Of a stretch of 64,000 nt of DNA, positions 5,352 to 61,042 are shown one piece after another. The notes below the pieces were generated by a model. It saw only the letters and a program-made list of their open reading frames with translations, had not been told where the DNA came from and did no database searches. Within the stretch, counting starts at the first letter, position 1, and the number at the start of each line of letters is the position of its first letter. Made by a program: the position numbers and the translations under genes. The stretch covers positions 6,165-70,164 of the forward strand of contig MFEJ01000023.1 in assembly GCA_001779915.1 (NCBI GenBank). The letters run 5' to 3'. The stretch is from Candidatus Doudnabacteria bacterium RIFCSPHIGHO2_01_FULL_45_18. Its GTDB lineage: Bacteria > Patescibacteriota > Doudnabacteria > UBA920 > O2-02-FULL-48-8.

Positions 5352-5840
5352 CTATTCTAGCAAATTCATTTTCGCGGAAAAAATGCTGATATCACTTTTC
5401 AACTTCAGTTCTTCAATCAAATCTCTGATGTCTTGTGAGATTTCAAATGGACTTAAAAAACAACTCTCTTTGATTTGAGTATAGCCATTCCTGACCAAGA
5501 AGCGTCGGAACATATCACGGGCATTGTGTTTCTCTTCCGGGATATCAAAAATTATCAAAGTCGAAAAGCCGTCCGTCCTTGTTTTCTTCGTAACTGCCTT
5601 GCTTCTTAAAAACTTAGCTTTCTTTGTAATCACAAATACATGGCCATTCGCTGTCTTGGTTTTTTTCACTAAACCATGTTTTTCAAATCTTTTAAGCTTC
5701 TTAAGGTACCCTGACCGAGTTAAATTTATTCCATTCATCTGACCGTACGACTTGAAAACCAATCCCTCAGGTTCCACTTTGCTGATCATCTTAAATAATT
5801 CCCAGGTCAATCTTGCCGCTGCTCTTCTTGAGCTCATCAT
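5352..5840 (-). CDS. winged-helix DNA-binding protein with C-terminal Cas2-like (PaaX_C-like) domain
   Basis: The N-terminal GINLTRSGYLKKLKRFEKHGLV segment is wHTH-like. The C-terminal IIFDIPEEKHNARDMFRRFLVRNGYTQIKESCFLSPF matches the Cas2/PaaX_C pattern. A paralog lies at 53929..54495. Confidence 0.55.
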   Translation of the reverse strand: MMSSRRAAARLTWELFKMISKVEPEGLVFKSYGQMNGINLTRSGYLKKLKRFEKHGLVKKTKTANGHVFVITKKAKFLRSKAVTKKTRTDGFSTLIIFDIPEEKHNARDMFRRFLVRNGYTQIKESCFLSPFEISQDIRDLIEELKLKSDISIFSAKMNLLE

Positions 5841-6411: not shown

Positions 6412-8256
6412 ATGAATAAAACCGTCTCGCAAAAACTTAAAAGCCTCCCCCAGAAACCCGGCGTGTATGTTTTTAAAGACGCCAAAGGGTTGGTTCTTTA
6501 TGTGGGCAAGGCGGTGAAATTAAAAAACCGGGTGTCTTCGTATTTCAAAAAAACCGGTGGGGACAACCGCGGCCCCAGAATCCAATTAATGATTTCCCAG
6601 ATCAAGGATCTGGATTATACGGTTTGCGACAATGAGCTCGAAAGTCTGATCCTAGAAAATAACTTTATCAAACAACTCAAGCCCAAATACAACGTCATGC
6701 TGCAGGACGATAAAAACTACCTGTTTCTGAAGATCAATATTAAAGACGAAATTCCGACCATTGGATACGAAAGAAAAATCCTGGATAAATCCGCTCGCTA
6801 CTTCGGCCCGTACACTTCTTCCGTAGCCATCAAAGACACCTTGCGCTTGGTAAGGAAAATTTTTCCATATTGTGCCAATGCCAAGGTTTCCCAGAAACCC
6901 TGTTTTTACTACCACATTGGCAAATGCCCGGGCGTTTGCTTTGGCAAAATCACGCTGGAAGAATACAGAAATAACTACATCAAACCGATTATGCAGTTTT
7001 TAGAAGGTCACCGATCCGAAATTCTCAAAGACTTGCAAGCTCAAATGCGAATTTTTGCCACCCATAAAAAATTCGAAAAAGCGGCAAAAATTCGCGACCA
7101 GATTTTTGCTCTTAATCGCATGCTGGAACGGCAAAAATTAGTGTATCCGAAAAAAATTGACCAAGATGTGTTCTCGATTTTTCAAGATAGGGTGACTTGT
7201 ATCAATTTGTTCATCATCCGAGAAGGCAAAATGATTCAAAAAGAAAACTTTATCCTGGAAAACACCAAACAGCTCTCTCCTGCGGAAATTTTAGAAAACT
7301 TTTTGCCGCGCTACTATCTGGAAGCCAGCAATTGGCCTAAGAAAATTTTGCTACCTGTGGAAATTGATTTCGAACCATTGCGAGGAGTCCGGTCAGATGA
7401 CCGGACGACGAAGCAATCTTACGACAGATCGCCACGCGCCTTCGGCGCTCGCGATGGGCATATTAAAATCGTTATCCCGACCCGAGGCACTAAACTACAG
7501 CTCATGAAACTGGGCGAAAAGAATGCTCAACAGTACTTAGAAGCCCAAGGCGACAAACATTTGCTTGAGGAAGCGCGCCTCTTGTCTTCGCTGAAAGAAC
7601 TCCAGCGCGTGCTGGATTTGCCTGCGCTTCCCGGAAGAATTGAAGCTTATGATATTTCCAACATCCAAGGCACCAATCCGGTCGGATCCATGATTGTCTT
7701 TGATTTCGCAAGGCCAAAAAAATCCGATTACCGCAAATTTAAAATCAAACGCCGGACCGTGTCCGCCGAAGGCTTGCCGAAGGCGGATGACTTTGCCATG
7801 ATGCGGGAAATGCTCGACCGGAGATTCAAAAACGGTTGGTCTAGGCCGGATTTGATCTTAATTGATGGCGGCAAAGGGCAGCTTTCCAGCGCAGTCAGTG
7901 TTCTGAAACAAAATAAGCTAAATATCCCAATTATTGGTCTGGCGAAAAGGCTTGAGGAGATTTTCCTGCCCGCAAAAAAACATCCGATTATGTTGCGCGA
8001 TAATTCCATTGCCCTGTTCCTCCTCCAAAGGATCCGTGATGAAGCGCACCGGTTTGCAGTCAAATACCATCGCCAACTTCGATCAAAAACATCACTCACT
8101 TCGGTTCTGGATCAAATCAGCGGCATTGGGGAAGGGAGAAAGAAACAATTGTTACAAAAATTTGGTTCCCCACGCCTTGTTCGCGAAGCTTCGATCACTG
8201 ACCTGGCCGCGATTGTAGGCAAAACTCTTGCGGAAAAAATCAAAGCCAGCCTGTAA
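6412..8256 (+). CDS. uvrC: excinuclease ABC subunit C, carrying an in-frame repeat-element insertion
   Basis: N-terminal GIY-YIG motif (GVYVFKDAKGLVLYVGKA); UvrC homology region and C-terminal HhH; 614 aa. Confidence 0.9.
   Translation: MNKTVSQKLKSLPQKPGVYVFKDAKGLVLYVGKAVKLKNRVSSYFKKTGGDNRGPRIQLMISQIKDLDYTVCDNELESLILENNFIKQLKPKYNVMLQDDKNYLFLKINIKDEIPTIGYERKILDKSARYFGPYTSSVAIKDTLRLVRKIFPYCANAKVSQKPCFYYHIGKCPGVCFGKITLEEYRNNYIKPIMQFLEGHRSEILKDLQAQMRIFATHKKFEKAAKIRDQIFALNRMLERQKLVYPKKIDQDVFSIFQDRVTCINLFIIREGKMIQKENFILENTKQLSPAEILENFLPRYYLEASNWPKKILLPVEIDFEPLRGVRSDDRTTKQSYDRSPRAFGARDGHIKIVIPTRGTKLQLMKLGEKNAQQYLEAQGDKHLLEEARLLSSLKELQRVLDLPALPGRIEAYDISNIQGTNPVGSMIVFDFARPKKSDYRKFKIKRRTVSAEGLPKADDFAMMREMLDRRFKNGWSRPDLILIDGGKGQLSSAVSVLKQNKLNIPIIGLAKRLEEIFLPAKKHPIMLRDNSIALFLLQRIRDEAHRFAVKYHRQLRSKTSLTSVLDQISGIGEGRKKQLLQKFGSPRLVREASITDLAAIVGKTLAEKIKASL
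7365..7447 (+). repeat. family A palindromic element, copy 1 (in-frame inside uvrC)
   Basis: CCATTGCGAGGAG...GACGAAGCAATC...GCGCCTTCGGCGCTCGCGATGG. Translated as PLRGVRSDDRTTKQSYDRSPRAFGARDG inside the UvrC ORF. Confidence 0.85.
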
Positions 8257-8260
8257 GTAC

Positions 8261-8371
8261 CCATCGCGAGCGACTGCTTGATCATATGGCTTTTATCTTG
8301 GCAGTCGCGTGGCGATCCCTCATAAGAGAGATTGCCACGCCTGCCTGTCCGGTAGGCAGGGCAGGCAGGTC
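8261..8371 (-). repeat. family A element, truncated copy 6, fused to a family B GC palindrome
   Basis: Begins 5 bp after the uvrC stop. CCATCGCGAGCGACTGC...GCAGTCGCGTGGCGATC matches the expanded-loop variant of copy 5; then CTGCCTGTCCGGTAGGCAGGGCAGGCAGG. Confidence 0.7.
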
Positions 8372-8496
8372 GCCGCCAAAATTTAATCTTAACGATACAG
8401 CGGCTCCTCGCAATGGGTTGACGTCTAGCTCTTTTTCTGGCAATATATTTGGGTCTCAAATCTACCAACTACCTACTACTAATTACTCACTAATTT

Positions 8497-18103: not shown

Positions 18104-18502
18104 GTGCAAACAAAAGATAATGCTAAAAAATTAAGACGGTCCCAAACTCCAGAAGAGCTAAAACTTTGGAACCGCTTGAAAAACGGCAGACTAGCTGAGT
18201 ACAAATTTCGTCGCCAAGTCACTATAGATAATTTTATCGTGGACTTCTGTTGTTTTAAAGAACGTCTTATAATTGAACTGGATGGGCAACCGCACCGTGA
18301 GTCTAAGCTTAATGATAAACATAGAGACGAATATTTAAAATCTCAAGGATTTACAGTTATTAGATTTTGGGACGGCCAGATACAAGGAGATTTTGAAAAA
18401 ATTCTAAATATAATCATAAGCGCTCTGGAATCACCCTCATCCGGCCTTCGGCCACCTTCTCCCGTCAAGGGAGAAGGAAAAAATGAAAAATATGAGACCT
18501 AA
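18104..18502 (+). CDS. DUF559 (Vsr-like PD-(D/E)xK) endonuclease domain protein
   Basis: LRRSQTPEELKLWNRLKN...YKFRRQ...IVDFCC...LIIELDGQPH...RDEYLKSQGFTVIRFW matches the DUF559 consensus. Confidence 0.7.
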   Translation: MQTKDNAKKLRRSQTPEELKLWNRLKNGRLAEYKFRRQVTIDNFIVDFCCFKERLIIELDGQPHRESKLNDKHRDEYLKSQGFTVIRFWDGQIQGDFEKILNIIISALESPSSGLRPPSPVKGEGKNEKYET

Positions 18503-19199: not shown

Positions 19200-19324
19200 C
19201 CATGGTCCATTTTTTTGCTAAAATGGCAAAGCTTTACAAATTAACTCAATATTCGTTCCACCTTGGGCGGGACGATAGTCCGCCAAAGGCGGATCCGCCT
19301 TTGGCGGAAAAGGAACCCCTTTCT

Positions 19325-21780: not shown

Positions 21781-22152
21781 ATGACTTTAGACGCGAATAT
21801 TGTAATTGCCTATCTAAACGGCGACCCTATTATCGAGGAATTTATTAAAAAGTCTCGATCTGAGGGTCTGCTTTTGTTTTTGCCTACTGTAGCAGAAAGT
21901 GAAGTACTTTCTTTTTCAAATTGGACTCCAGAGGAGCGCAAGGCAACCGAGCAATTCTTAGAAGAGAATTTTACTTCTATAACATTTGACCGCAGTATTG
22001 CCAGGATTGCCGCTGAAATAAGACGAACTGTGAAAATAAAATTTCCTGACGCGGCTATCGCGGCCACGGCATTGTTTACCAAAACACCTCTGCTGACTCG
22101 AAACTTACACGACTTCCAAAACGTTCCTGATCTGCAAATACTATCAATTTAA
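21781..22152 (+). CDS. vapC: PIN-domain toxin, VapC-like
   Basis: N-terminal LDANIVIAYL acidic motif, IAATAL...LLTRNLHDF C-terminal PIN motif; 123 aa. Confidence 0.7.
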   Translation: MTLDANIVIAYLNGDPIIEEFIKKSRSEGLLLFLPTVAESEVLSFSNWTPEERKATEQFLEENFTSITFDRSIARIAAEIRRTVKIKFPDAAIAATALFTKTPLLTRNLHDFQNVPDLQILSI

Positions 22153-22157
22153 AAAAA

Positions 22158-22208
22158 CCCTCCGCCGTCGCATAAAGCTTTGGCGGAGGGTTTTTTTTAT
22201 GATTTTAT
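22158..22208. terminator. bidirectional rho-independent terminator
   Basis: AAAAAACCCTCCGCC...GGCGGAGGGTTTTTTTT, a perfect 9-bp stem with flanking A and T runs. Confidence 0.75.
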
Positions 22209-23032: not shown

Positions 23033-23159
23033 CCATTGCGAGGAGGCCAATTTATTATAAAGCTCTATTCTTGTGGCCGACGCGGCAATCTGACTCTTTG
23101 GTTAGATCGCCACGCGCCTGTCAAGATTTGAGCTTTAATAAAGCAGTCGCTCGCGATGG
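23033..23159 (+). repeat. family A element copy 7 (expanded-loop variant) in the 5' region of the lipoprotein gene
   Basis: CCATTGCGAGGAG...CGACGCGGCAATCT...GATCGCCACGCGCC...AAAGCAGTCGCTCGCGATGG. Confidence 0.75.
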
Positions 23160-31020: not shown

Positions 31021-32100
31021 ATGAAAAAAATTCTGAAAATTTTAAGTATAGAAACCAGTTGCGACGAGACTGCGGCGGCGGTGATTGTTAATGGCACGAT
31101 TAAATCCAACATTATTGCCTCCCAAGTCAAGCTGCACGCAAAATTTGGCGGGGTCGTCCCAGAAGTAGCCGCTCGCGAACATCTAATGGCTATCATCCCG
31201 ACTATAGATTTGGCTTTAAAAACTGCAAAAACAAATTTGGAAGACCTGGATTACATCGCAGTCACACAAGGACCTGGGCTTGCGACCTCGCTTATGGTCG
31301 GCATTGATACCGCGAAAGCCTTAGGCGCGGCTTTGGATATCCCGGTTATCCCCATCAATCATTTGGAAGCGCATATATACGCGAACTTCGTTAAACCTTT
31401 AACCATTGCGAGGAGCGTAGCGACGAAGCAATCTTACGATAGATCGCCACGCGCCTTCGGCGCTCGCGATGGTAATATTTTCCCCTCCCTGATTCTCATC
31501 GTCTCTGGCGGGCACACGCTTTTGGTCCAAATGAGGGATCATGGCCAATATCATATTTTAGGTGAGACGGTGGATGATGCTGCGGGGGAAGCCTTTGATA
31601 AAACCGCCAAGATGTTGGGGTTGGGTTATCCTGGCGGGCCAGCGCTTTCCAAATTGGCAAAATCTGGTAACCCAACAGCCTTTAATTTCCCGCGCCCCAT
31701 GCTTAACTCGGCTAATTTTGAATTCAGTTTCTCGGGGCTGAAGACCGCCGTGCTGTACAAAATCATGGAACATGAAACATGGAACATGAAACAGAAAGCA
31801 GATATAGCCGCCTCGGTCCAGGCCGCGATCGTGGATGTCTTAATCGCTAAATTAGAAAAAGCTATCCAAAGATACCACCCGAAAACCATTATGTTAGGCG
31901 GTGGGGTGGCGGCCAACGAACTTTTGCGCCAGCGTTTCAAGTTTCAAGCTTCACGTTTCAAAATTCATTGCTCTATTCCAGCACTGGAGTACTGCACTGA
32001 CAATGCAGCCATGATCGGACTCGCAGCTTACCATCGTTTGATCAGAAAAAAACCGCAAACAAAAAATTTCTCGGCTCAACCCAATCTGAGCTTAAAATGA
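31021..32100 (+). CDS. tsaD: tRNA N6-adenosine threonylcarbamoyltransferase TsaD, carrying an in-frame repeat-element insertion
   Basis: SIETSCDETAAAV and a GGH metal motif; the insertion encodes TIARSVATKQSYDRSPRAFGARDGN. Confidence 0.9.
   Translation: MKKILKILSIETSCDETAAAVIVNGTIKSNIIASQVKLHAKFGGVVPEVAAREHLMAIIPTIDLALKTAKTNLEDLDYIAVTQGPGLATSLMVGIDTAKALGAALDIPVIPINHLEAHIYANFVKPLTIARSVATKQSYDRSPRAFGARDGNIFPSLILIVSGGHTLLVQMRDHGQYHILGETVDDAAGEAFDKTAKMLGLGYPGGPALSKLAKSGNPTAFNFPRPMLNSANFEFSFSGLKTAVLYKIMEHETWNMKQKADIAASVQAAIVDVLIAKLEKAIQRYHPKTIMLGGGVAANELLRQRFKFQASRFKIHCSIPALEYCTDNAAMIGLAAYHRLIRKKPQTKNFSAQPNLSLK
31403..31472 (+). repeat. family A palindromic element copy 2 (in-frame inside tsaD)
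   Basis: CCATTGCGAGGAGCGTAGCGACGAAGCAATCTTACGATAGATCGCCACGCGCCTTCGGCGCTCGCGATGG. Confidence 0.85.
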
Positions 32101-32112
32101 TATAATACTGGC

Positions 32113-34293
32113 ATGCGAGAAATTCCGAAAACTTACGACCAATCCAAAGAAACGGACATCTACCAACTCTGGGAATCATCCGGGTTTTTTAATCCTGACA
32201 ATCTTTCGGGCAAACCGTTTACCATCATGATGCCGCCACCCAATGCCACAGGCACGCTACATATTGGGCACGCGTTTGAAACATCAATCCAAGATATCTT
32301 GATTCGCTACCACAGGATGAAGGGAGAAAAAACGCTATGGTTACCGGGCACTGATCACGCCGCTATTGCCACAAATACCAAAGTTGAAAAAATTTTGATT
32401 AAGGAAACCGGCAAAAACCGCCATGATATTGGCCGCGAGGCATTTGTAAAAAAAGTTGAAGAGTTTGTGGAAAAAAGTCGTGGTACGATTCAACAACAAT
32501 TGCGAACTGTGGGTGCTTCCGCCGACTGGTCGCGCGAAGCGTTTACATTTGATGAACCCCGCAACCTGGCGATCCGAACCGCGTTTAAGAAAATGTTTGA
32601 GGCTGGGCTGATTTATCGCGGTATCCGCGTGATCAACTGGGATCCGAAAGGTCAGACTTCGGTTTCGGATGACGAAGTCGTCCATAAATCCGAAAAAGCC
32701 CAGCTATATACGTTTAAATATTCGAAAGACTTTCCAATTGCTATCGCAACCACTCGGCCGGAAACTAAAGTGGGTGATGTGGCAGTGGCCGTACATCCTG
32801 CTGATGTTCGCTATAAAAAATTTGTAGGCCAAGAATTCAAAGTCAATTTTGCTGGCGCTGATTTAAATATCAAAATCGTGGCCGATGAATCCGTGGACCC
32901 AGAATTTGGCACAGGTGCGGTTGGAGTTACGCCCGCACATAGCATGGCAGACTTTGACATTGCTCAAAGACACAATTTGCCAGCGCCACAAGTGATCAAC
33001 GAATTTGCAAAAATGACCGACACGGCCGGTTCTTTGATTGCTGGTAAAAAAACCAAAGAAGCTCGTGAGATAATAGTCGCTTGGCTAACTGAACAAGGCT
33101 TGTTAGAAAAAACTGAAGCCATAGATATCAATCTTGCTACTGCGGAACGAAGCGGCGGTACGATTGAACCTTTACCAAAACTCCAATGGTTTGTAAATGT
33201 AAACAAGGCCGTGGCCGAACGGAGCGGAAAAACGCTGAAAGAGCTAATGCGTGACGCTGTAGCAAGTGGCAAAATAAAAATCCTCCCAGAACGATTTGAA
33301 AAAACATATTTTCATTGGATAGATAATTTACGCGATTGGAACATCAGCCGCCAGCTTTGGTACGGCCACCGGATTCCGGTTTGGTACAAAGGTGAGGAAA
33401 TTTATTCCGGGATTGAAGAACCGGAAGGCAGTGGCTGGTCGCAAGACGAAGACACTTTAGACACTTGGTTCTCCTCGGCACTTTGGACGTTCTCGACTTT
33501 AGGTTGGCCAAACGAAACTGCTGATCTCAAAACATTCCACCCAACAGATGTCATGGCACCTGGGTACGAAATTCTGTTTTTCTGGGTAGCGCGCATGATT
33601 CTTATGAGCACGTTTCTGCTTGACGACGTGCCGTTTAAAACCGTTTATCTGCATGGCATTGTTCGCGATATCCAAGGCAAAAAGTTCAGCAAATCTCTAG
33701 ACAATGGGATTGATCCAGTAGAAGTCATTAAACAATACGGCGCCGATGCCTTACGCATGGGTTTGGTCGTGGGGGTGGGTGCAGGCAATGACAGTAAATA
33801 TGACCAAATGAAAGTGAAAGGCTATCGCAATTTCGCGAACAAAATTTGGAATGCAGCTAGATTTGTCATGCAAAACACTCAAGACATGACCCCCTCTAAC
33901 TCCCCCTTAAAAGGGGGAGAGAAAAAGAACCCCCCTCCTTTTAAGGAGGGGTTGGGGGAGGTCAAACTCACCCCCGAAGACCAAGCTATTCTCTACGAAC
34001 TTAATCAACTCTTGGCCAAAACTACTATACAAATGGACAACTTTGACTTTGCGCATGCGGCGGAAAACCTGTATCACTACTTCTGGCACACTTTTGCGGA
34101 CAAAATCCTCGAAGAATCAAAAGTCAAACTTGCGAATGAGAAAACAAAAGCCTCGGCGCAACTCATGCTCAAAACCATCCTGGAAACTTCGTTAAAACTT
34201 CTGCATCCGTTCATGCCATTTGTCACTGAAACCATCTGGCAACTGGATCACAAGGATCTGCTGATGATAGAGAAGTGGCCCCGCCTGCGCTAA
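32113..34293 (+). CDS. valS: valine--tRNA ligase (short form, 726 aa), carrying an in-frame family C palindrome
   Basis: HIGH (LHIGHA) and KMSKS (KFSKS) motifs and an editing domain. Confidence 0.85.
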   Translation: MREIPKTYDQSKETDIYQLWESSGFFNPDNLSGKPFTIMMPPPNATGTLHIGHAFETSIQDILIRYHRMKGEKTLWLPGTDHAAIATNTKVEKILIKETGKNRHDIGREAFVKKVEEFVEKSRGTIQQQLRTVGASADWSREAFTFDEPRNLAIRTAFKKMFEAGLIYRGIRVINWDPKGQTSVSDDEVVHKSEKAQLYTFKYSKDFPIAIATTRPETKVGDVAVAVHPADVRYKKFVGQEFKVNFAGADLNIKIVADESVDPEFGTGAVGVTPAHSMADFDIAQRHNLPAPQVINEFAKMTDTAGSLIAGKKTKEAREIIVAWLTEQGLLEKTEAIDINLATAERSGGTIEPLPKLQWFVNVNKAVAERSGKTLKELMRDAVASGKIKILPERFEKTYFHWIDNLRDWNISRQLWYGHRIPVWYKGEEIYSGIEEPEGSGWSQDEDTLDTWFSSALWTFSTLGWPNETADLKTFHPTDVMAPGYEILFFWVARMILMSTFLLDDVPFKTVYLHGIVRDIQGKKFSKSLDNGIDPVEVIKQYGADALRMGLVVGVGAGNDSKYDQMKVKGYRNFANKIWNAARFVMQNTQDMTPSNSPLKGGEKKNPPPFKEGLGEVKLTPEDQAILYELNQLLAKTTIQMDNFDFAHAAENLYHYFWHTFADKILEESKVKLANEKTKASAQLMLKTILETSLKLLHPFMPFVTETIWQLDHKDLLMIEKWPRLR
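33900..33952 (+). repeat. family C palindromes (CTCCCCCTTAAAAGGGGGAG + CCCCTCCTTTTAAGGAGGGGT) in-frame in valS
   Basis: The second unit matches 14315..14335 exactly; translated SPLKGGEKKNPPPFKEGLG. Confidence 0.75.
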
Positions 34294-34424: not shown

Positions 34425-34997
34425 TTATTTAAATCTCACTGGTACGGCAAACGAAGAGTCAAATTCGGGTAACCCCGAGGGATTATCTTTTTCAATAATC
34501 AACACGCCGTATTCCGCATCACCTGGATCAAACGGTAAACTTACGGCGAAAGGCACATAGTCACTAGTCATCCAATCGCCTAGAGCTTGTGCTCCGACTT
34601 GGAATAAAATATTACCCTTATCATCTTTCAGGATGATTGGCAGGTTCGCTTCAAAATACCAAAAACCGCGGGCACGACCCATGACAGCCATAGGACTCGT
34701 GACAAGTTCACCAAACGCAGGTGTATCCACAATCACTTCCGGTTCATTATGTTCGGCTTCGTTAAATACCAAACCTCGGTATTCACATTTCACCGGTTCA
34801 CCGTCAATAATGATCCCGCCGGCCAGTTCACAAGATTGAAAATCCGTCACTTCCGGCCCAACTTTTCTCTGGATGATAAATAAAGCTAATCCGGCCAGGA
34901 TAATCAACACGCCAATTTGTAGCAACCGATTATTCATAAAGGCAGTATAATTAGTAATTAGTAAGGAGTAAAGAGCGACGAAAAAACAAAAAACCAT
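34425..34997 (-). CDS. membrane-anchored hypothetical protein (possible Gmad2-like Ig domain)
   Basis: N-terminal TM; start ambiguous (ATG at 34997 inside the repeat terminus, or a downstream MNNRLL). Confidence 0.4.
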   Translation of the reverse strand: MVFCFFVALYSLLITNYTAFMNNRLLQIGVLIILAGLALFIIQRKVGPEVTDFQSCELAGGIIIDGEPVKCEYRGLVFNEAEHNEPEVIVDTPAFGELVTSPMAVMGRARGFWYFEANLPIILKDDKGNILFQVGAQALGDWMTSDYVPFAVSLPFDPGDAEYGVLIIEKDNPSGLPEFDSSFAVPVRFK

Positions 34998-35077
34998 TGC
35001 GAGGAGTCCTGGTTGCTCGGGACGACGAAGCAATCTATCCTAATGACAGATCGCCACGGCCTTCGGCCTCGCGATGG
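34994..35077 (+). repeat. family A element copy 3 (between rpoC and the downstream gene)
   Basis: CCATTGCGAGGAGTCCTGGTTGCTCGGGACGACGAAGCAATC...GGCCTTCGGCCTCGCGATGG. Confidence 0.8.
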
Positions 35078-53928: not shown

Positions 53929-54495
53929 GTGCCACGAAAACCAAACGAACACTTATCTGTTTATCTTCTAAAGCTTGTGGGACTGGGAAGCTTGTTTTTG
54001 TTAGTTTCAATTTTATCTCCACAACTGCCCTATTTGGTAATCAAAGCCCTATTAAAGAAACGGTTCGGGGCTAAGTATAACAATAAACAAATTGGACATT
54101 CTATTCGATATCTTAAACGAAAAAAATTTATAGCTCTTGAAAATAAATCCGGTAAGATACAGATGGTCCTGACTAAGCTTGGGTTGAAACATTTACAAAA
54201 TGCTGACCTTGATATGATCAAAATTGCTCCTCATGCCTGGGATGCCAAGTGGCGAATAGTTATGTTTGATATCCCTGAAGAACATAAACCAGCTCGGCAT
54301 GTCTTTCGCAGGAAACTTAAAGAGTTGGGATTTGTTCATTTCCAAAGAAGCGTCTTTTTACTCCCATTCAAGTGTGAAAAAGAAATATACGAACTGGCTG
54401 AGCATCTTTCAATCAGTTCTTATGTCCACATATTATCCGCAGATCGCTTTCCAAACGATAAATCGCTTCTGAAAAGATGCCAAATCACCCACTGA
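53929..54495 (+). CDS. winged-helix + Cas2-like (PaaX_C-like) protein, paralog of 5352..5840
   Basis: KWRIVMFDIPEEHKPARHVFRRKLKELGFVHFQRSVFLLPF aligns with the paralog's IIFDIPEEKHNARDMFRRFLVRNGYTQIKESCFLSPF; non-ATG start (GTG) likely. Confidence 0.5.
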   Translation: MPRKPNEHLSVYLLKLVGLGSLFLLVSILSPQLPYLVIKALLKKRFGAKYNNKQIGHSIRYLKRKKFIALENKSGKIQMVLTKLGLKHLQNADLDMIKIAPHAWDAKWRIVMFDIPEEHKPARHVFRRKLKELGFVHFQRSVFLLPFKCEKEIYELAEHLSISSYVHILSADRFPNDKSLLKRCQITH

Positions 54496-58296: not shown

Positions 58297-59473
58297 GACC
58301 ATTGCGAGGAGGAACGTTCCGACGAAGCAATCTTTAAAAAAGATCGCCACGGCCTTCGGCCTCGCGATGGTTATTTATTTATTTATCGTGCCTAATCTTG
58401 CATCGGCCAAAACCTTGCTCTTTTTCGACAAAACTTGGGAAGTTTTACCGTTCCCGTCAGGCACGGTTAACCTCCTGCCCATCAGAAACGACCTGGACTT
58501 AACTATGCTTGCCAAGCAAGCTATTTTGGGGCGCGAGGAACTGGCTCAGACCTGGCTCTTAGACGAAATCTCGATCAAACAACTGGATGATATCAGTAGT
58601 CAGGTCAACCAAGTCGGCCAAGATGCCAAACTGGTTATGGACGGAAATCGCGCCGCGGAATTTAATCCGGGACAAAACGGCCAGGCTTTGGATTTATATA
58701 CGCTTAAAATTCTGCTACGGTCAGACCAAGCGGAAATCAGTCTGCCAGTTTTAATCAGCGAACCGGCGGTTAAATTATCCGACACGAACCGTCTTGGGAT
58801 TAACGAGCTGGTGGCTGTGGGTGAATCGGATTTTGCAGGTTCACCAAAAAACCGGATTCACAACCTGACGGTAGGAGCGAATAAATTCAATGGCCTCATC
58901 ATAGAGCCGGGTGAAGTATTTTCGTTTAATAAGTATTTGGGTGACGTGGATGGCGAGCACGGCTTTTTACCGGAACTGGTGATTAAAGCTGGCGGCGTGA
59001 CCCCAGAATTCGGCGGTGGGCTTTGCCAAGTTTCCTCCACGACCTTCCGGGCGGCCATGAACGCCGGTTTGCCGATTACGGCTAGACGAAACCACAGCTT
59101 TGCGGTACAATACTATGCTCCCCAGGGAACGGATGCCACGATCTATCCCGGAGCCGTAGATTTAAAATTTGTTAATAATTTGCCAAGCAAATTGTTGATT
59201 CAAACCAAAATTGTGGGAACCAAATTATATTTTAACTTGTACGCCACGAAAGATAATCGAACGGTAAGCTTTGAAGGCCCCACCCAATACGATCAGAAGC
59301 CTGATGGATCCATGAAAGCGATCTGGACCAGGCATGTGACCCTTAATGGCCAAACTACGGATCAAGAGTTTAAAAGCGCGTATTCCCCGCCAGCGCTGTA
59401 TCATCGCGATTCATCAGAACAAAGCGCAACTCCCAATCCTGATGCGCAACCAGATCCACAACCGACCACTTAA
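58259..59473 (+). CDS. VanW-family protein; its N-terminal tail/TM runs through a family A element
   Basis: GGGLCQVSSTTFRAAMNAGL VanW motif; start uncertain (ATG 58259 overlapping tsaE, or ATG 58363 inside the repeat terminus). Confidence 0.65.
   Translation: MINAILQSSFKIRTIARRNVPTKQSLKKIATAFGLAMVIYLFIVPNLASAKTLLFFDKTWEVLPFPSGTVNLLPIRNDLDLTMLAKQAILGREELAQTWLLDEISIKQLDDISSQVNQVGQDAKLVMDGNRAAEFNPGQNGQALDLYTLKILLRSDQAEISLPVLISEPAVKLSDTNRLGINELVAVGESDFAGSPKNRIHNLTVGANKFNGLIIEPGEVFSFNKYLGDVDGEHGFLPELVIKAGGVTPEFGGGLCQVSSTTFRAAMNAGLPITARRNHSFAVQYYAPQGTDATIYPGAVDLKFVNNLPSKLLIQTKIVGTKLYFNLYATKDNRTVSFEGPTQYDQKPDGSMKAIWTRHVTLNGQTTDQEFKSAYSPPALYHRDSSEQSATPNPDAQPDPQPTT
58299..58370 (+). repeat. family A element copy 4
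   Basis: CCATTGCGAGGAGGAACGTTCCGACGAAGCAATCTTTAAAAAAGATCGCCACGGCCTTCGGCCTCGCGATGG. Confidence 0.85.
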
Positions 59474-60933: not shown

Positions 60934-61042
60934 CCATCGCGAGCGACTGCTTTATATATTCAGCTTAACCCTTGGCAGTCGCGTGGCGATCTTAATTAAG
61001 ATTGCTTCGTCGTCCCGATAAATCGGGACTCCTCGCAATGGG
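60934..61042 (-). repeat. family A element copy 5 (reverse orientation, expanded-loop variant) between pepA and ruvB
   Basis: The reverse complement reads CCATTGCGAGGAGTCCCGATTTATCGGGACGACGAAGCAATC...GCGACTGCC...AAAGCAGTCGCTCGCGATGG. Confidence 0.8.

Follow-up and report, generated by a model that had tools for sequence, protein, structure and literature searches.

How do short palindromic sequences come to lie in frame within conserved protein genes, and to what class of element do they belong? The question is raised by a stretch of 64,000 nucleotides from Candidatus Doudnabacteria bacterium RIFCSPHIGHO2_01_FULL_45_18 (assembly GCA_001779915.1, contig MFEJ01000023.1, positions 6,165 to 70,164; hereafter the window, with positions counted from its first letter), which carries seven copies of one palindromic repeat, two of them inside uvrC and tsaD. 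A preliminary description had presented these copies as elements with terminal inverted repeats that resemble Rickettsia palindromic elements (RPEs) and may act at the RNA level. We find that each element is a head-head (HH) dimer of two hairpin units of the repetitive extragenic palindromic (REP) type, with their unpaired tags outward, and that the units most probably constitute a family of the CGTC-tagged (reverse complement ATGAC) REP superfamily, that is, non-autonomous selfish DNA copied in trans.

Seven copies with invariant ends

The 13-mer CCATTGCGAGGAG occurs exactly seven times in the window, where chance would give about 0-1 matches to the ends, and with up to two mismatches there are eight matches compared with a mean of 1.5 in shuffled sequences, none of 100 shuffles reaching eight. 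The right end CTCGCGATGG is also present seven times, each occurrence being partnered with one CCATTGCGAGGAG left end and lying 70-156 nt downstream of it. Four blocks of 13, 14, 10 and 10 nt are free of mismatches in all copies, with the exception of the 14-nt core, which deviates in two copies only (two mismatches in c3 and four in c2; Table 1). The segments between the blocks vary in sequence and length, and self-complementarity is almost always kept. A palindromic repeat family of seven copies, as first proposed, is therefore real, with two corrections to its boundaries: the lead copy, originally placed at 7365-7447, had been set 10 nt too low, and the copy at 8261-8336 that had been called truncated is a full 156-bp element on the minus strand.

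Each element is a dimer of two hairpin units

The left half of the element reads CCATTGC-GAGGAG-(hairpin)-CGACGAA-GCAATCT, with a 5-bp lower stem ATTGC/GCAAT, and the right half AGATCGC-CACG-(hairpin)-CTC-GCGATGG, with a 5-bp lower stem ATCGC/GCGAT. On the strand bearing GAG...CGAA, the unit consensus is 5'-tag-AT(T/C)GC-GAG(GAG)-(variable hairpin)-(CGA)CG(AA/TG)-GC(A/G)AT-tail-3', comprising an unpaired 5' tag, the 5-bp lower stem, a purine-rich internal motif, a variable upper hairpin and an unpaired tail; in relatives from other organisms the tag is (Y)GTC and the tail CTC. One minimal unit is GTCATTGCGAGCGAAGCGAAGCAATCTC. In the internal motif GAG stands opposite CGAA or CGTG and is able to form tandem G.A pairs. 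K-turn and loop-E readings of the GAG/CGAA motif were dropped because of a misfit in bulge geometry.

What had been taken for terminal inverted repeats are, on this anatomy, halves of the lower stems of two separate hairpin units. A classical miniature inverted-repeat transposable element (MITE), with terminal inverted repeats of 10-13 nt serving as binding sites for a DDE transposase whose gene lies elsewhere in the genome, would account for CCATTGCGAG and CTCGCGATGG being mutually inverted and exact in all seven copies. We nevertheless judge a MITE very unlikely, since the bases of the supposed inverted repeats pair inside the units, the internal arrangement is free between copies (long or short units, two lower-stem types), single units of 22-34 nt without a partner occur in large numbers, target-site duplication is absent, and no transposase is encoded in the window.

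The dimer anatomy is borne out by covariation in a set of 236 unique units that combines those of the window with others from about 270 loci in many organisms. The third pair of the lower stem is T-A in 176 units, C-G in 57 and non-Watson-Crick in three, and a closing stem of 3 bp or more is formed by the variable insert in 47% of units versus 3.4% of shuffled sequences, 28 different stems of this kind being in use. In every unit, the 14 of the window included, the lower stem starts with A-T, T-A (ATTGC/GCAAT or ATCGC/GCGAT). The preliminary description had pointed to folding and covariation as a check, and pairing is indeed kept, but the pairs covary inside units and not end to end: end-to-end pairing would put T.G and A.C where within-unit pairing is Watson-Crick. 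This within-unit covariation is free of scan bias because the half of each unit that was not selected on could vary. An apparent excess of mixed dimers, pairing a unit with T-A at the third position (T/A-type) with one with C-G (C/G-type), was withdrawn as an ascertainment artefact, because the pattern of the genome scan demanded a T/A-type followed by a C/G-type unit; in the viral set, which was selected on one unit only, 35 of 36 dimers are of the same type. All seven window copies are heterodimers of a T/A-type and a C/G-type unit with tags outside.

The short loops in the 236-unit set are GAA (23), GTA (10), GCA (9), AAA (8) and GGA (6), and on one strand the loops are G-N-A triloops closed by C-G. 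Such triloops, combined with tandem G.A pairs, are reportedly (Hirao, Yoshizawa) a hallmark of unusually stable DNA mini-hairpins of the form d(GCGNAGC), e.g. d(GCGAAGC).

The hairpin GCGCCTTCGGCGC, present in four of the seven copies only, had been read as closed by a CUUCGG tetraloop; it is a 5-bp stem with a TTC triloop, because with a C(UUCG)G tetraloop the stem would fall out of register at the next base pair, and the RNA role argued from that tetraloop was built on the wrong register. The more general proposal, a structured RNA of tRNA size, folded as a four-way junction or cloverleaf and working in the transcript, for instance in regulation, processing or stabilisation, with repetition in DNA being secondary, can call on the strong folding of whole dimers (z of -2.6 to -8.3 versus shuffles) into P1-P2-P3-P4 junctions, on hairpin stems that change sequence with pairing kept, and on intergenic copies lying right behind stop codons, a known site of action of REP RNAs. 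However, the two strands fold about equally well, the junction helices of mixed dimers contain the T.G and A.C oppositions noted above, and single units are common and without orientation bias relative to the upstream gene (19 versus 22 among single units downstream of stops, counted in an unbiased set). Rfam gives no match either at gathering thresholds or at E<=10, two copies are read through in coding sequence, and the tetraloop is a triloop. We therefore hold a structured RNA to be unlikely.

Within individual copies, the left unit of c2 holds a nested extra hairpin, CCTGCCTG...CAGGCAGG (8340-8369), a perfect 8 bp between its CGA and CGTG, which suggests that hairpins can be added within units. 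The loops of the two c3 units are mutually complementary, and the left-unit hairpin of c7, TCCCGATTTATCGGGA, is also present in other phyla. The gene order uvrC-secG-SBP at the c2 locus is found in relatives.

Table 1. Copies of the repeat and the two genes that carry copies in frame, in window coordinates
Feature	Position	Strand	Description
c1	7375-7457	+	83 bp dimer, in frame in uvrC (aa 322-349)
c1, left unit	7375-7419		followed by spacer TACGAC
c1, right unit	7426-7457		
c2	8261-8416	-	156 bp full dimer, 4 nt past uvrC stop, upstream of secG
c2, left unit	8329-8416		
c2, right unit	8261-8318		
c3	23033-23159	+	127 bp long-form dimer, between gdh stop (23181) and lipoprotein ATG (23020), both genes on minus strand
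c4	31403-31472	+	70 bp minimal dimer, in frame in tsaD (aa 128-151); left-unit hairpin GC-GTA-GC
c5	34994-35077	+	84 bp dimer, between rpoC stop (35101, minus strand) and Gmad2-domain gene
c6	58299-58370	+	72 bp dimer, begins 3 nt past tsaE stop
c7	60934-61041	-	108 bp dimer, between pepA (stop 60928) and ruvB (start 61066)
uvrC	6412-8256	+	614 aa, intact across c1; TIGR00194 equivalog, 541 bits (NCBIfam)
tsaD	31021-32100	+	359 aa, intact across c4; TIGR03723 equivalog, 409 bits (NCBIfam)

In-frame copies in UvrC and TsaD

As first reported, uvrC and tsaD each remain a single-frame open reading frame (ORF) across the element, and homology continues on both sides of it. Most UvrC orthologues read ...NEEELRPAFIGRKFPKI... 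where the window protein reads ...DFEPLRGVRSDDRTTKQSYDRSPRAFGARDGHIKI..., the added peptide PLRGVRSDDRTTKQSYDRSPRAFGARDG being as the preliminary description gave it, and in most of 120 TsaD orthologues four residues separate HIYANFV from FPAxILIVSGGH compared with 27 in the window TsaD. Alignment thus identifies the extra residues as insertions, which most orthologues of both proteins lack. AlphaFold2 models of good overall confidence (mean predicted local distance difference test score, pLDDT, of 90.5 for TsaD and 86.1 for UvrC) place both inserts in predicted low-confidence coil, with pLDDT below 50 and no regular structure at TsaD 128-149 and UvrC 331-348, consistent with the surface loops that had been proposed. 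The exact 359-residue TsaD with its insert occurs on 12 contigs from several independent Rifle aquifer assemblies, and is therefore no assembly artefact. Insertion into essential genes accordingly holds for uvrC and tsaD; it does not extend to VanW, c6 lying outside that gene. The closest named homologues of both proteins belong to Candidatus Doudnabacteria, a lineage of the candidate phyla radiation (CPR), and the inserted peptides match no NCBIfam family at E<=10, any RPE domain model in that collection included.

An intervening sequence, a mini-intron or intein-like element removed from RNA or protein to leave insert-free mature products, might also be expected to be strongly structured, to have precise conserved ends and to lie in essential genes. 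Neither c1 (83 nt) nor c4 (70 nt) has a length divisible by three, however, so the frame-keeping stretch must hold one or two extra bases or a small compensating indel. Clean excision of 83 or 70 nt would shift the frame, and the UvrC and TsaD halves are in a common frame only with read-through; the single-frame ORFs therefore argue for read-through translation. There is also no match to a ribozyme or intron family, the elements are far below intein size, and most copies are intergenic, making excision extremely unlikely. From the reading frames we infer that both inserts are translated by read-through, the products of which are predicted to yield tryptic peptides such as SPRAFGAR, QSYDR and DGNIFPSLILIVSGGH....

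Both insertion sites have been used more than once. The TsaD loop from HIYANFV to FPAxILIVSGGH (aa 124-155, window 31390-31485) is an insertion hot spot, with at least four unrelated insert types across orthologues: the present family, SPSPSLKGG..SPPFKGELEGV, EKSEGKTKGKQK.VPFSLP, and an 8-residue type (IQKSKFKN or IRNPKSEI). In the closest TsaD orthologue (L282, 78% identity) the loop is filled by an unrelated repeat family. At the UvrC site, three other Doudnabacteria loci (L125, L126 and L127) have differently composed dimers of the present family, and other orthologues have an unrelated SPQPPLKLRGG-type repeat.

A second, unrelated palindromic repeat of the window, TGACCCCCTCTAACTCCCCCTTAAAAGGGGG ... 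CCTCCTTTTAAGGAGGGGTTGGGGGAGGTCA (33887-33964), lies in frame in a class-I aminoacyl-tRNA synthetase gene (32113-34293), where it encodes TPSNSPLKGGEKKNPPPFKEGLGEV. Members of its family also occupy the loop in the TsaD of L282 and, in other Doudnabacteria, the UvrC site.

Could the copies be old, vertically inherited insertions that no longer move, their similarity kept by gene conversion or hairpin-templated repair and the hot spots reflecting common ancestry followed by divergence? A dimer of this family does occupy the same UvrC place in four Doudnabacteria lineages, with the neighbouring RPAF.GR residues lost, no presence/absence polymorphism was found, and the same debate surrounds RPE-4/6/7 (Matsutani et al., 2013; PMC3767692). 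Against this, UvrC orthologues at 73-74% identity lack the insert and more distant ones, at 65-71%, have it; the element ends are 100% identical in seven copies compared with about 70% protein identity for the flanking genes of relatives; the loop of the closest TsaD orthologue holds an unrelated repeat family; and near-identical units occur in distant phyla. We find the absence of current mobility quite unlikely on these grounds.

Distribution across organisms

Our scan of a genome collection used a loose pattern of 17 fixed bases that required a T/A-type followed by a C/G-type unit; most matches were due to chance, and about 40 of 120 loci have clear units. Their CPR hosts are Curtissbacteria and Daviesbacteria, and their hosts outside the CPR are Omnitrophota, Aminicenantes, Nitrospirota, Zixibacteria, Fibrobacteres, Ignavibacteria-like bacteria, Firmicutes, Syntrophorhabdus, gammaproteobacteria and a cultured Bradyrhizobium. 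Scanning IMG/VR with the pattern GTCATTGCGAG-N(4-34)-CGAAGCAATC gave at least 120 loci (L128-L247) and at least 244 units. The tag is TGTC in 126 of 243 (52%) and CGTC in 98 of 243 (40%) of the IMG/VR matches listed, and TGTC in 37 and CGTC in 29 of 71 in the genome set. Tails among the same IMG/VR matches listed are CTC (94), CCA (67) and CCC (26 of 243), those of the window being CTT, CTG, CTA and CTC. Dimers among the IMG/VR matches listed have tags outside in 36 cases, tags inside in 6 and a tandem arrangement in 11, the most frequent spacer length being 24-25 nt.

About 18-20 of the 120 IMG/VR loci listed are RcGTA-type gene-transfer-agent clusters (GTA_TIM, Phage_BR0599, phiJL001 Gp84), probably alphaproteobacterial as judged from their Pfam families, and the "viral" occurrence of the unit is therefore partly chromosomal. 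Other IMG/VR loci listed carry portal, capsid and terminase genes.

One 35-nt unit, compared with plasmids by BLAST, had matches of 88-100% on those of cultured bacteria (Methylosinus, Methylocystis, Novosphingobium, Halomonas, Calothrix, Aulosira and Legionella), none of the matches being annotated, and among curated phages only three uncultured "Bacteriophage sp." records matched. The exact window variant, with a CC tag and a long T/A-type plus a C/G-type unit, is rare, being found in 34 stretches of the Joint Genome Institute (JGI) metagenome collection that come from few metagenomes, including Rifle sample C687J35174. Most of these copies immediately follow a TAA stop in A+T-rich intergenic DNA; a single unique one lies in frame within a PrmC-like gene.

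At L083 (1578-1690, three copies with a 43-nt period) and L173 (2695-2818, four copies with a 33-nt period) single units form tandem arrays. A CRISPR-like reading of both was ruled out in favour of plain tandem duplication, since the L083 spacers are identical.

In-frame copies elsewhere are found in cellular genes for ATP-dependent DNA ligase (L005, L152), PolA (L027), UvrD (L046), DnaX (L268) and PrmC (L264), in addition to UvrC (the window and three relatives) and TsaD (the window), and in several phage portal, capsid and terminase genes. A bias toward replication and repair genes is a lead from a small sample, in raw counts that carry no correction for gene length or linker content. Earlier work lists uvrA, uvrB, uvrC, polA and dnaE as repair or replication hosts of tagged REPs, and the bias noted in 2013 (Di Nocera et al.; PMC3733652) is independently reproduced here, again at the strength of a lead. 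The unit is near-identical from CPR bacteria to alphaproteobacteria, cyanobacteria and phage-like contigs and has no known transposase. It is conceivable, though rather unlikely, that an undiscovered spread mechanism tied to single-stranded DNA at replication or repair, or selection on such a mechanism, explains these landings in preference to permissive loops.

Mobility and a possible mechanism

Of 23 unique dimers, 13 have no target-site duplication, and the distribution resembles that of a shuffled-partner control. No transposase, HUH (including Y1_Tnp) or integrase domain was identified by Pfam in the approximately 55 ORFs of the window. A phmmer search of about 2 Mb of unit-bearing loci for RAYT (REP-associated tyrosine transposase) and IS200 proteins gave no match, a weak negative given the approximate queries, and clustering of the ORFs of the 120 IMG/VR loci listed for a co-occurring enzyme returned only phage structural genes and gene-transfer-agent genes, the latter probably alphaproteobacterial.

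DNA-type loops on one strand, the absence of target duplication and orientation bias, and tight packing after stops or in disordered loops lead us to a model of copying through single-stranded DNA. The units would be non-autonomous selfish sequences copied in trans to new sites, with neither target duplication nor a nearby transposase gene, most likely through a single-stranded DNA hairpin handled by an enzyme. Copies would persist only at harmless sites, either a few bases past stops in packed operons or in disordered surface loops of proteins. Where the total length is divisible by three they would be read through as about 24-28 extra residues, as in uvrC and tsaD; a high G+C content, few stop codons and hairpins of variable length make this possible.

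By analogy with the REPs of E. coli, intergenic copies may act additionally as RNA hairpins. Runs of T follow c5 (on the minus strand) and c2 in the direction of the upstream gene, and a simple terminator scan around these two copies was negative; a terminator role for c2 and c5, drawn from the T-runs alone, is an unsupported suggestion.

Gene starts and other features of the window

ATGG reads outward at both ends of the dimer, with consequences for gene starts. The CCAT end of c5 is the source of the ATG (34997-34995, minus strand) called for the Gmad2-domain gene, and the terminal ATGG of c6 holds an in-frame ATG (58367-58369) that is likely to be the start of the VanW-domain ORF. These start codons represent either real new N-termini or annotation traps.

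The approximately 55 ORFs of the window are otherwise housekeeping genes, including uvrA/B/C, polA, ruvA/B, rpoB/C and aminoacyl-tRNA synthetases. Also encoded are two small proteins with a PaaX central Cas2-like domain and one DUF559 (Vsr-like endonuclease) protein (5352-5840, 53929-54495 and 18104-18502). Two adjoining perfect 15-nt palindromes, TCCGCCAAAGGCGGA and TCCGCCTTTGGCGGA (19279-19308), lie in the part of the rpsF ORF that precedes the S6 domain, an N-terminal extension. After a PIN-domain gene, a perfect 16-bp inverted repeat, AAAAAAACCCTCCGCC ... GGCGGAGGGTTTTTTT (22151-22197), with an A-run on one side and a T-run on the other, resembles a bidirectional intrinsic terminator.

Comparison with known palindromic elements

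The CGTC-tagged REP superfamily was defined by Di Nocera, De Gregorio and Rocco (2013; BMC Genomics 14:522, PMC3733652). Its members have a terminal CGTC, with frequent TGTC and CCTC variants, stems that near-invariably start with complementary A-T, and short unpaired tails near CCA; HH dimers with tags outside predominate and heterodimers are common. They lie downstream of genes, have no associated transposase, and encode 20-30 residues when intragenic, often in replication or repair genes, dimers being listed in uvrC of Xanthobacter and polA of Micavibrio (PMC3733652). The present family shares the CGTC/TGTC tag (in relatives), the A-T/T-A stem start, the short unpaired C-rich tail, the occurrence as single units or tags-outward HH dimers that are often heterodimers, sites just 3' of genes, the lack of a linked transposase, and in-frame copies of 20-30 residues in replication and repair genes. 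It differs in its peptides, which are of the VIASEAKQS or PLRG..KQS type compared with VIPAKAGIQ, VIPGLDPGIH, VIPVLDTGI and VILDGRNIEF for CGTC-1 to CGTC-4, in the ..CC tag and short spacers of the window, and in its CPR host, which lies outside the five phyla reported (PMC3733652).

Several points weigh against this assignment, or against the mobility that it implies. The window tags, ACC, CCC or TCC, keep only the final C of the canonical tag, a CC variant shared with an Omnitrophota relative (L059), and the window spacers measure 6-12 nt versus the usual 20-100 nt. In the published account, as far as its text and supplements describe them, CGTC-1 to CGTC-4 have simple stems of 8-9 bp with a 4-5 nt loop, whereas the window unit has 5 bp, the G.A motif and a variable upper hairpin. 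Neither ATTGCGAG nor CTCGCAAT is found in the main text of PMC3733652 or in its supplements, nor is ATTGC in the main text, the sole part searched for it. The unit thus appears to stand outside CGTC-1 to CGTC-4, a separation drawn from text, supplements and peptides and for that reason not absolute. The minimum-free-energy fold of whole dimers prefers a four-way junction with end-to-end pairing, about equally on both strands, and the choice of DNA over RNA hairpins is suggested by loop type and orientation statistics, properties of the sequences themselves. Mobility in trans is likewise deduced; no empty/filled site polymorphism was found, and orthologous inserts could be old.

The preliminary description had supposed that such elements were undescribed for this kind of genome. 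A literature search with nucleotide and peptide strings and with CPR plus palindrome found no description of them in the CPR, so the claim appears to stand for this group, but the class had been described in 2013, in-frame copies in repair genes among its features. The additions made here are modest: the stem of the family, the tag variant, the CPR host group and the recurrent use of the same protein loops. They extend tagged REPs, along with their in-frame lodging in essential genes, to the CPR, whose genomes are very small and thought to be poor in selfish DNA. At least three unrelated repeat families have independently entered the TsaD loop after HIYANFV and the UvrC linker. Such loops naturally mark permissive sites, and in metagenome annotation they are a source of spurious "hypothetical" peptides and odd start-codon calls. 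The enzyme that mobilises CGTC REPs was left unidentified in the literature (PMC3733652), and a well-defined unit that crosses phyla offers a handle on the question, posed in 2013, of what moves these transposase-less elements.

The likeness to Rickettsia that was first suggested goes beyond analogy, as R. conorii RPE-6 has been equated with CGTC-1 and RPE-4 with CGTC-4 (PMC3733652), and RPE-4/6/7 share ATGAC (Matsutani et al., 2013; PMC3767692), the reverse complement of the GTCAT formed by tag and stem start in the wider unit family. Shared with RPEs are in-frame insertion in housekeeping genes at solvent-exposed sites and the presence of different inserts, or none, at the UvrC and TsaD sites across orthologues; in Rickettsia, too, the same locus carries different RPE groups or none in orthologues, with "hot spot or common origin" left unsettled (PMC3767692). 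The differences are in the stem sequence, in the window ends, which are ATGG and not ATGAC, and in the host, a free-living or episymbiotic groundwater CPR bacterium compared with an obligate intracellular alphaproteobacterium.

With REPINs (REP doublets forming hairpins) and the BIMEs (bacterial interspersed mosaic elements) of E. coli the family shares two inverted REP hairpins separated by a short spacer, often with unlike partners, and the long forms c2, c3 and c7 can fold whole as one long hairpin. REPINs, however, have a GTAG tag and are tied to a RAYT gene that is present once and has REPs on both sides (Bertels and Rainey, 2011; PMC3116915), and the units here have no GTAG tag. REPIN sequences are also lineage-specific, in contrast to a unit that is near-identical across phyla. 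The Neisseria repeat dRS3 presumably resembles the unit in its tag, its AT-first stem, its C-GAAA-G or C-GCAG-G type loop and its clustering. Its stem is a different one (ATTCCCGC/GCGGGAAT), and dRS3 is also a phage integration site. In the published scheme dRS3, with the Neisseria intergenic mosaic element (NIME), is CGTC-1 (PMC3733652). On the basis of tag, stem, tail, dimer type and lack of duplication, together with the differences in peptide and stem, we therefore place the repeat in a known superfamily, as a new family found in a new host group.

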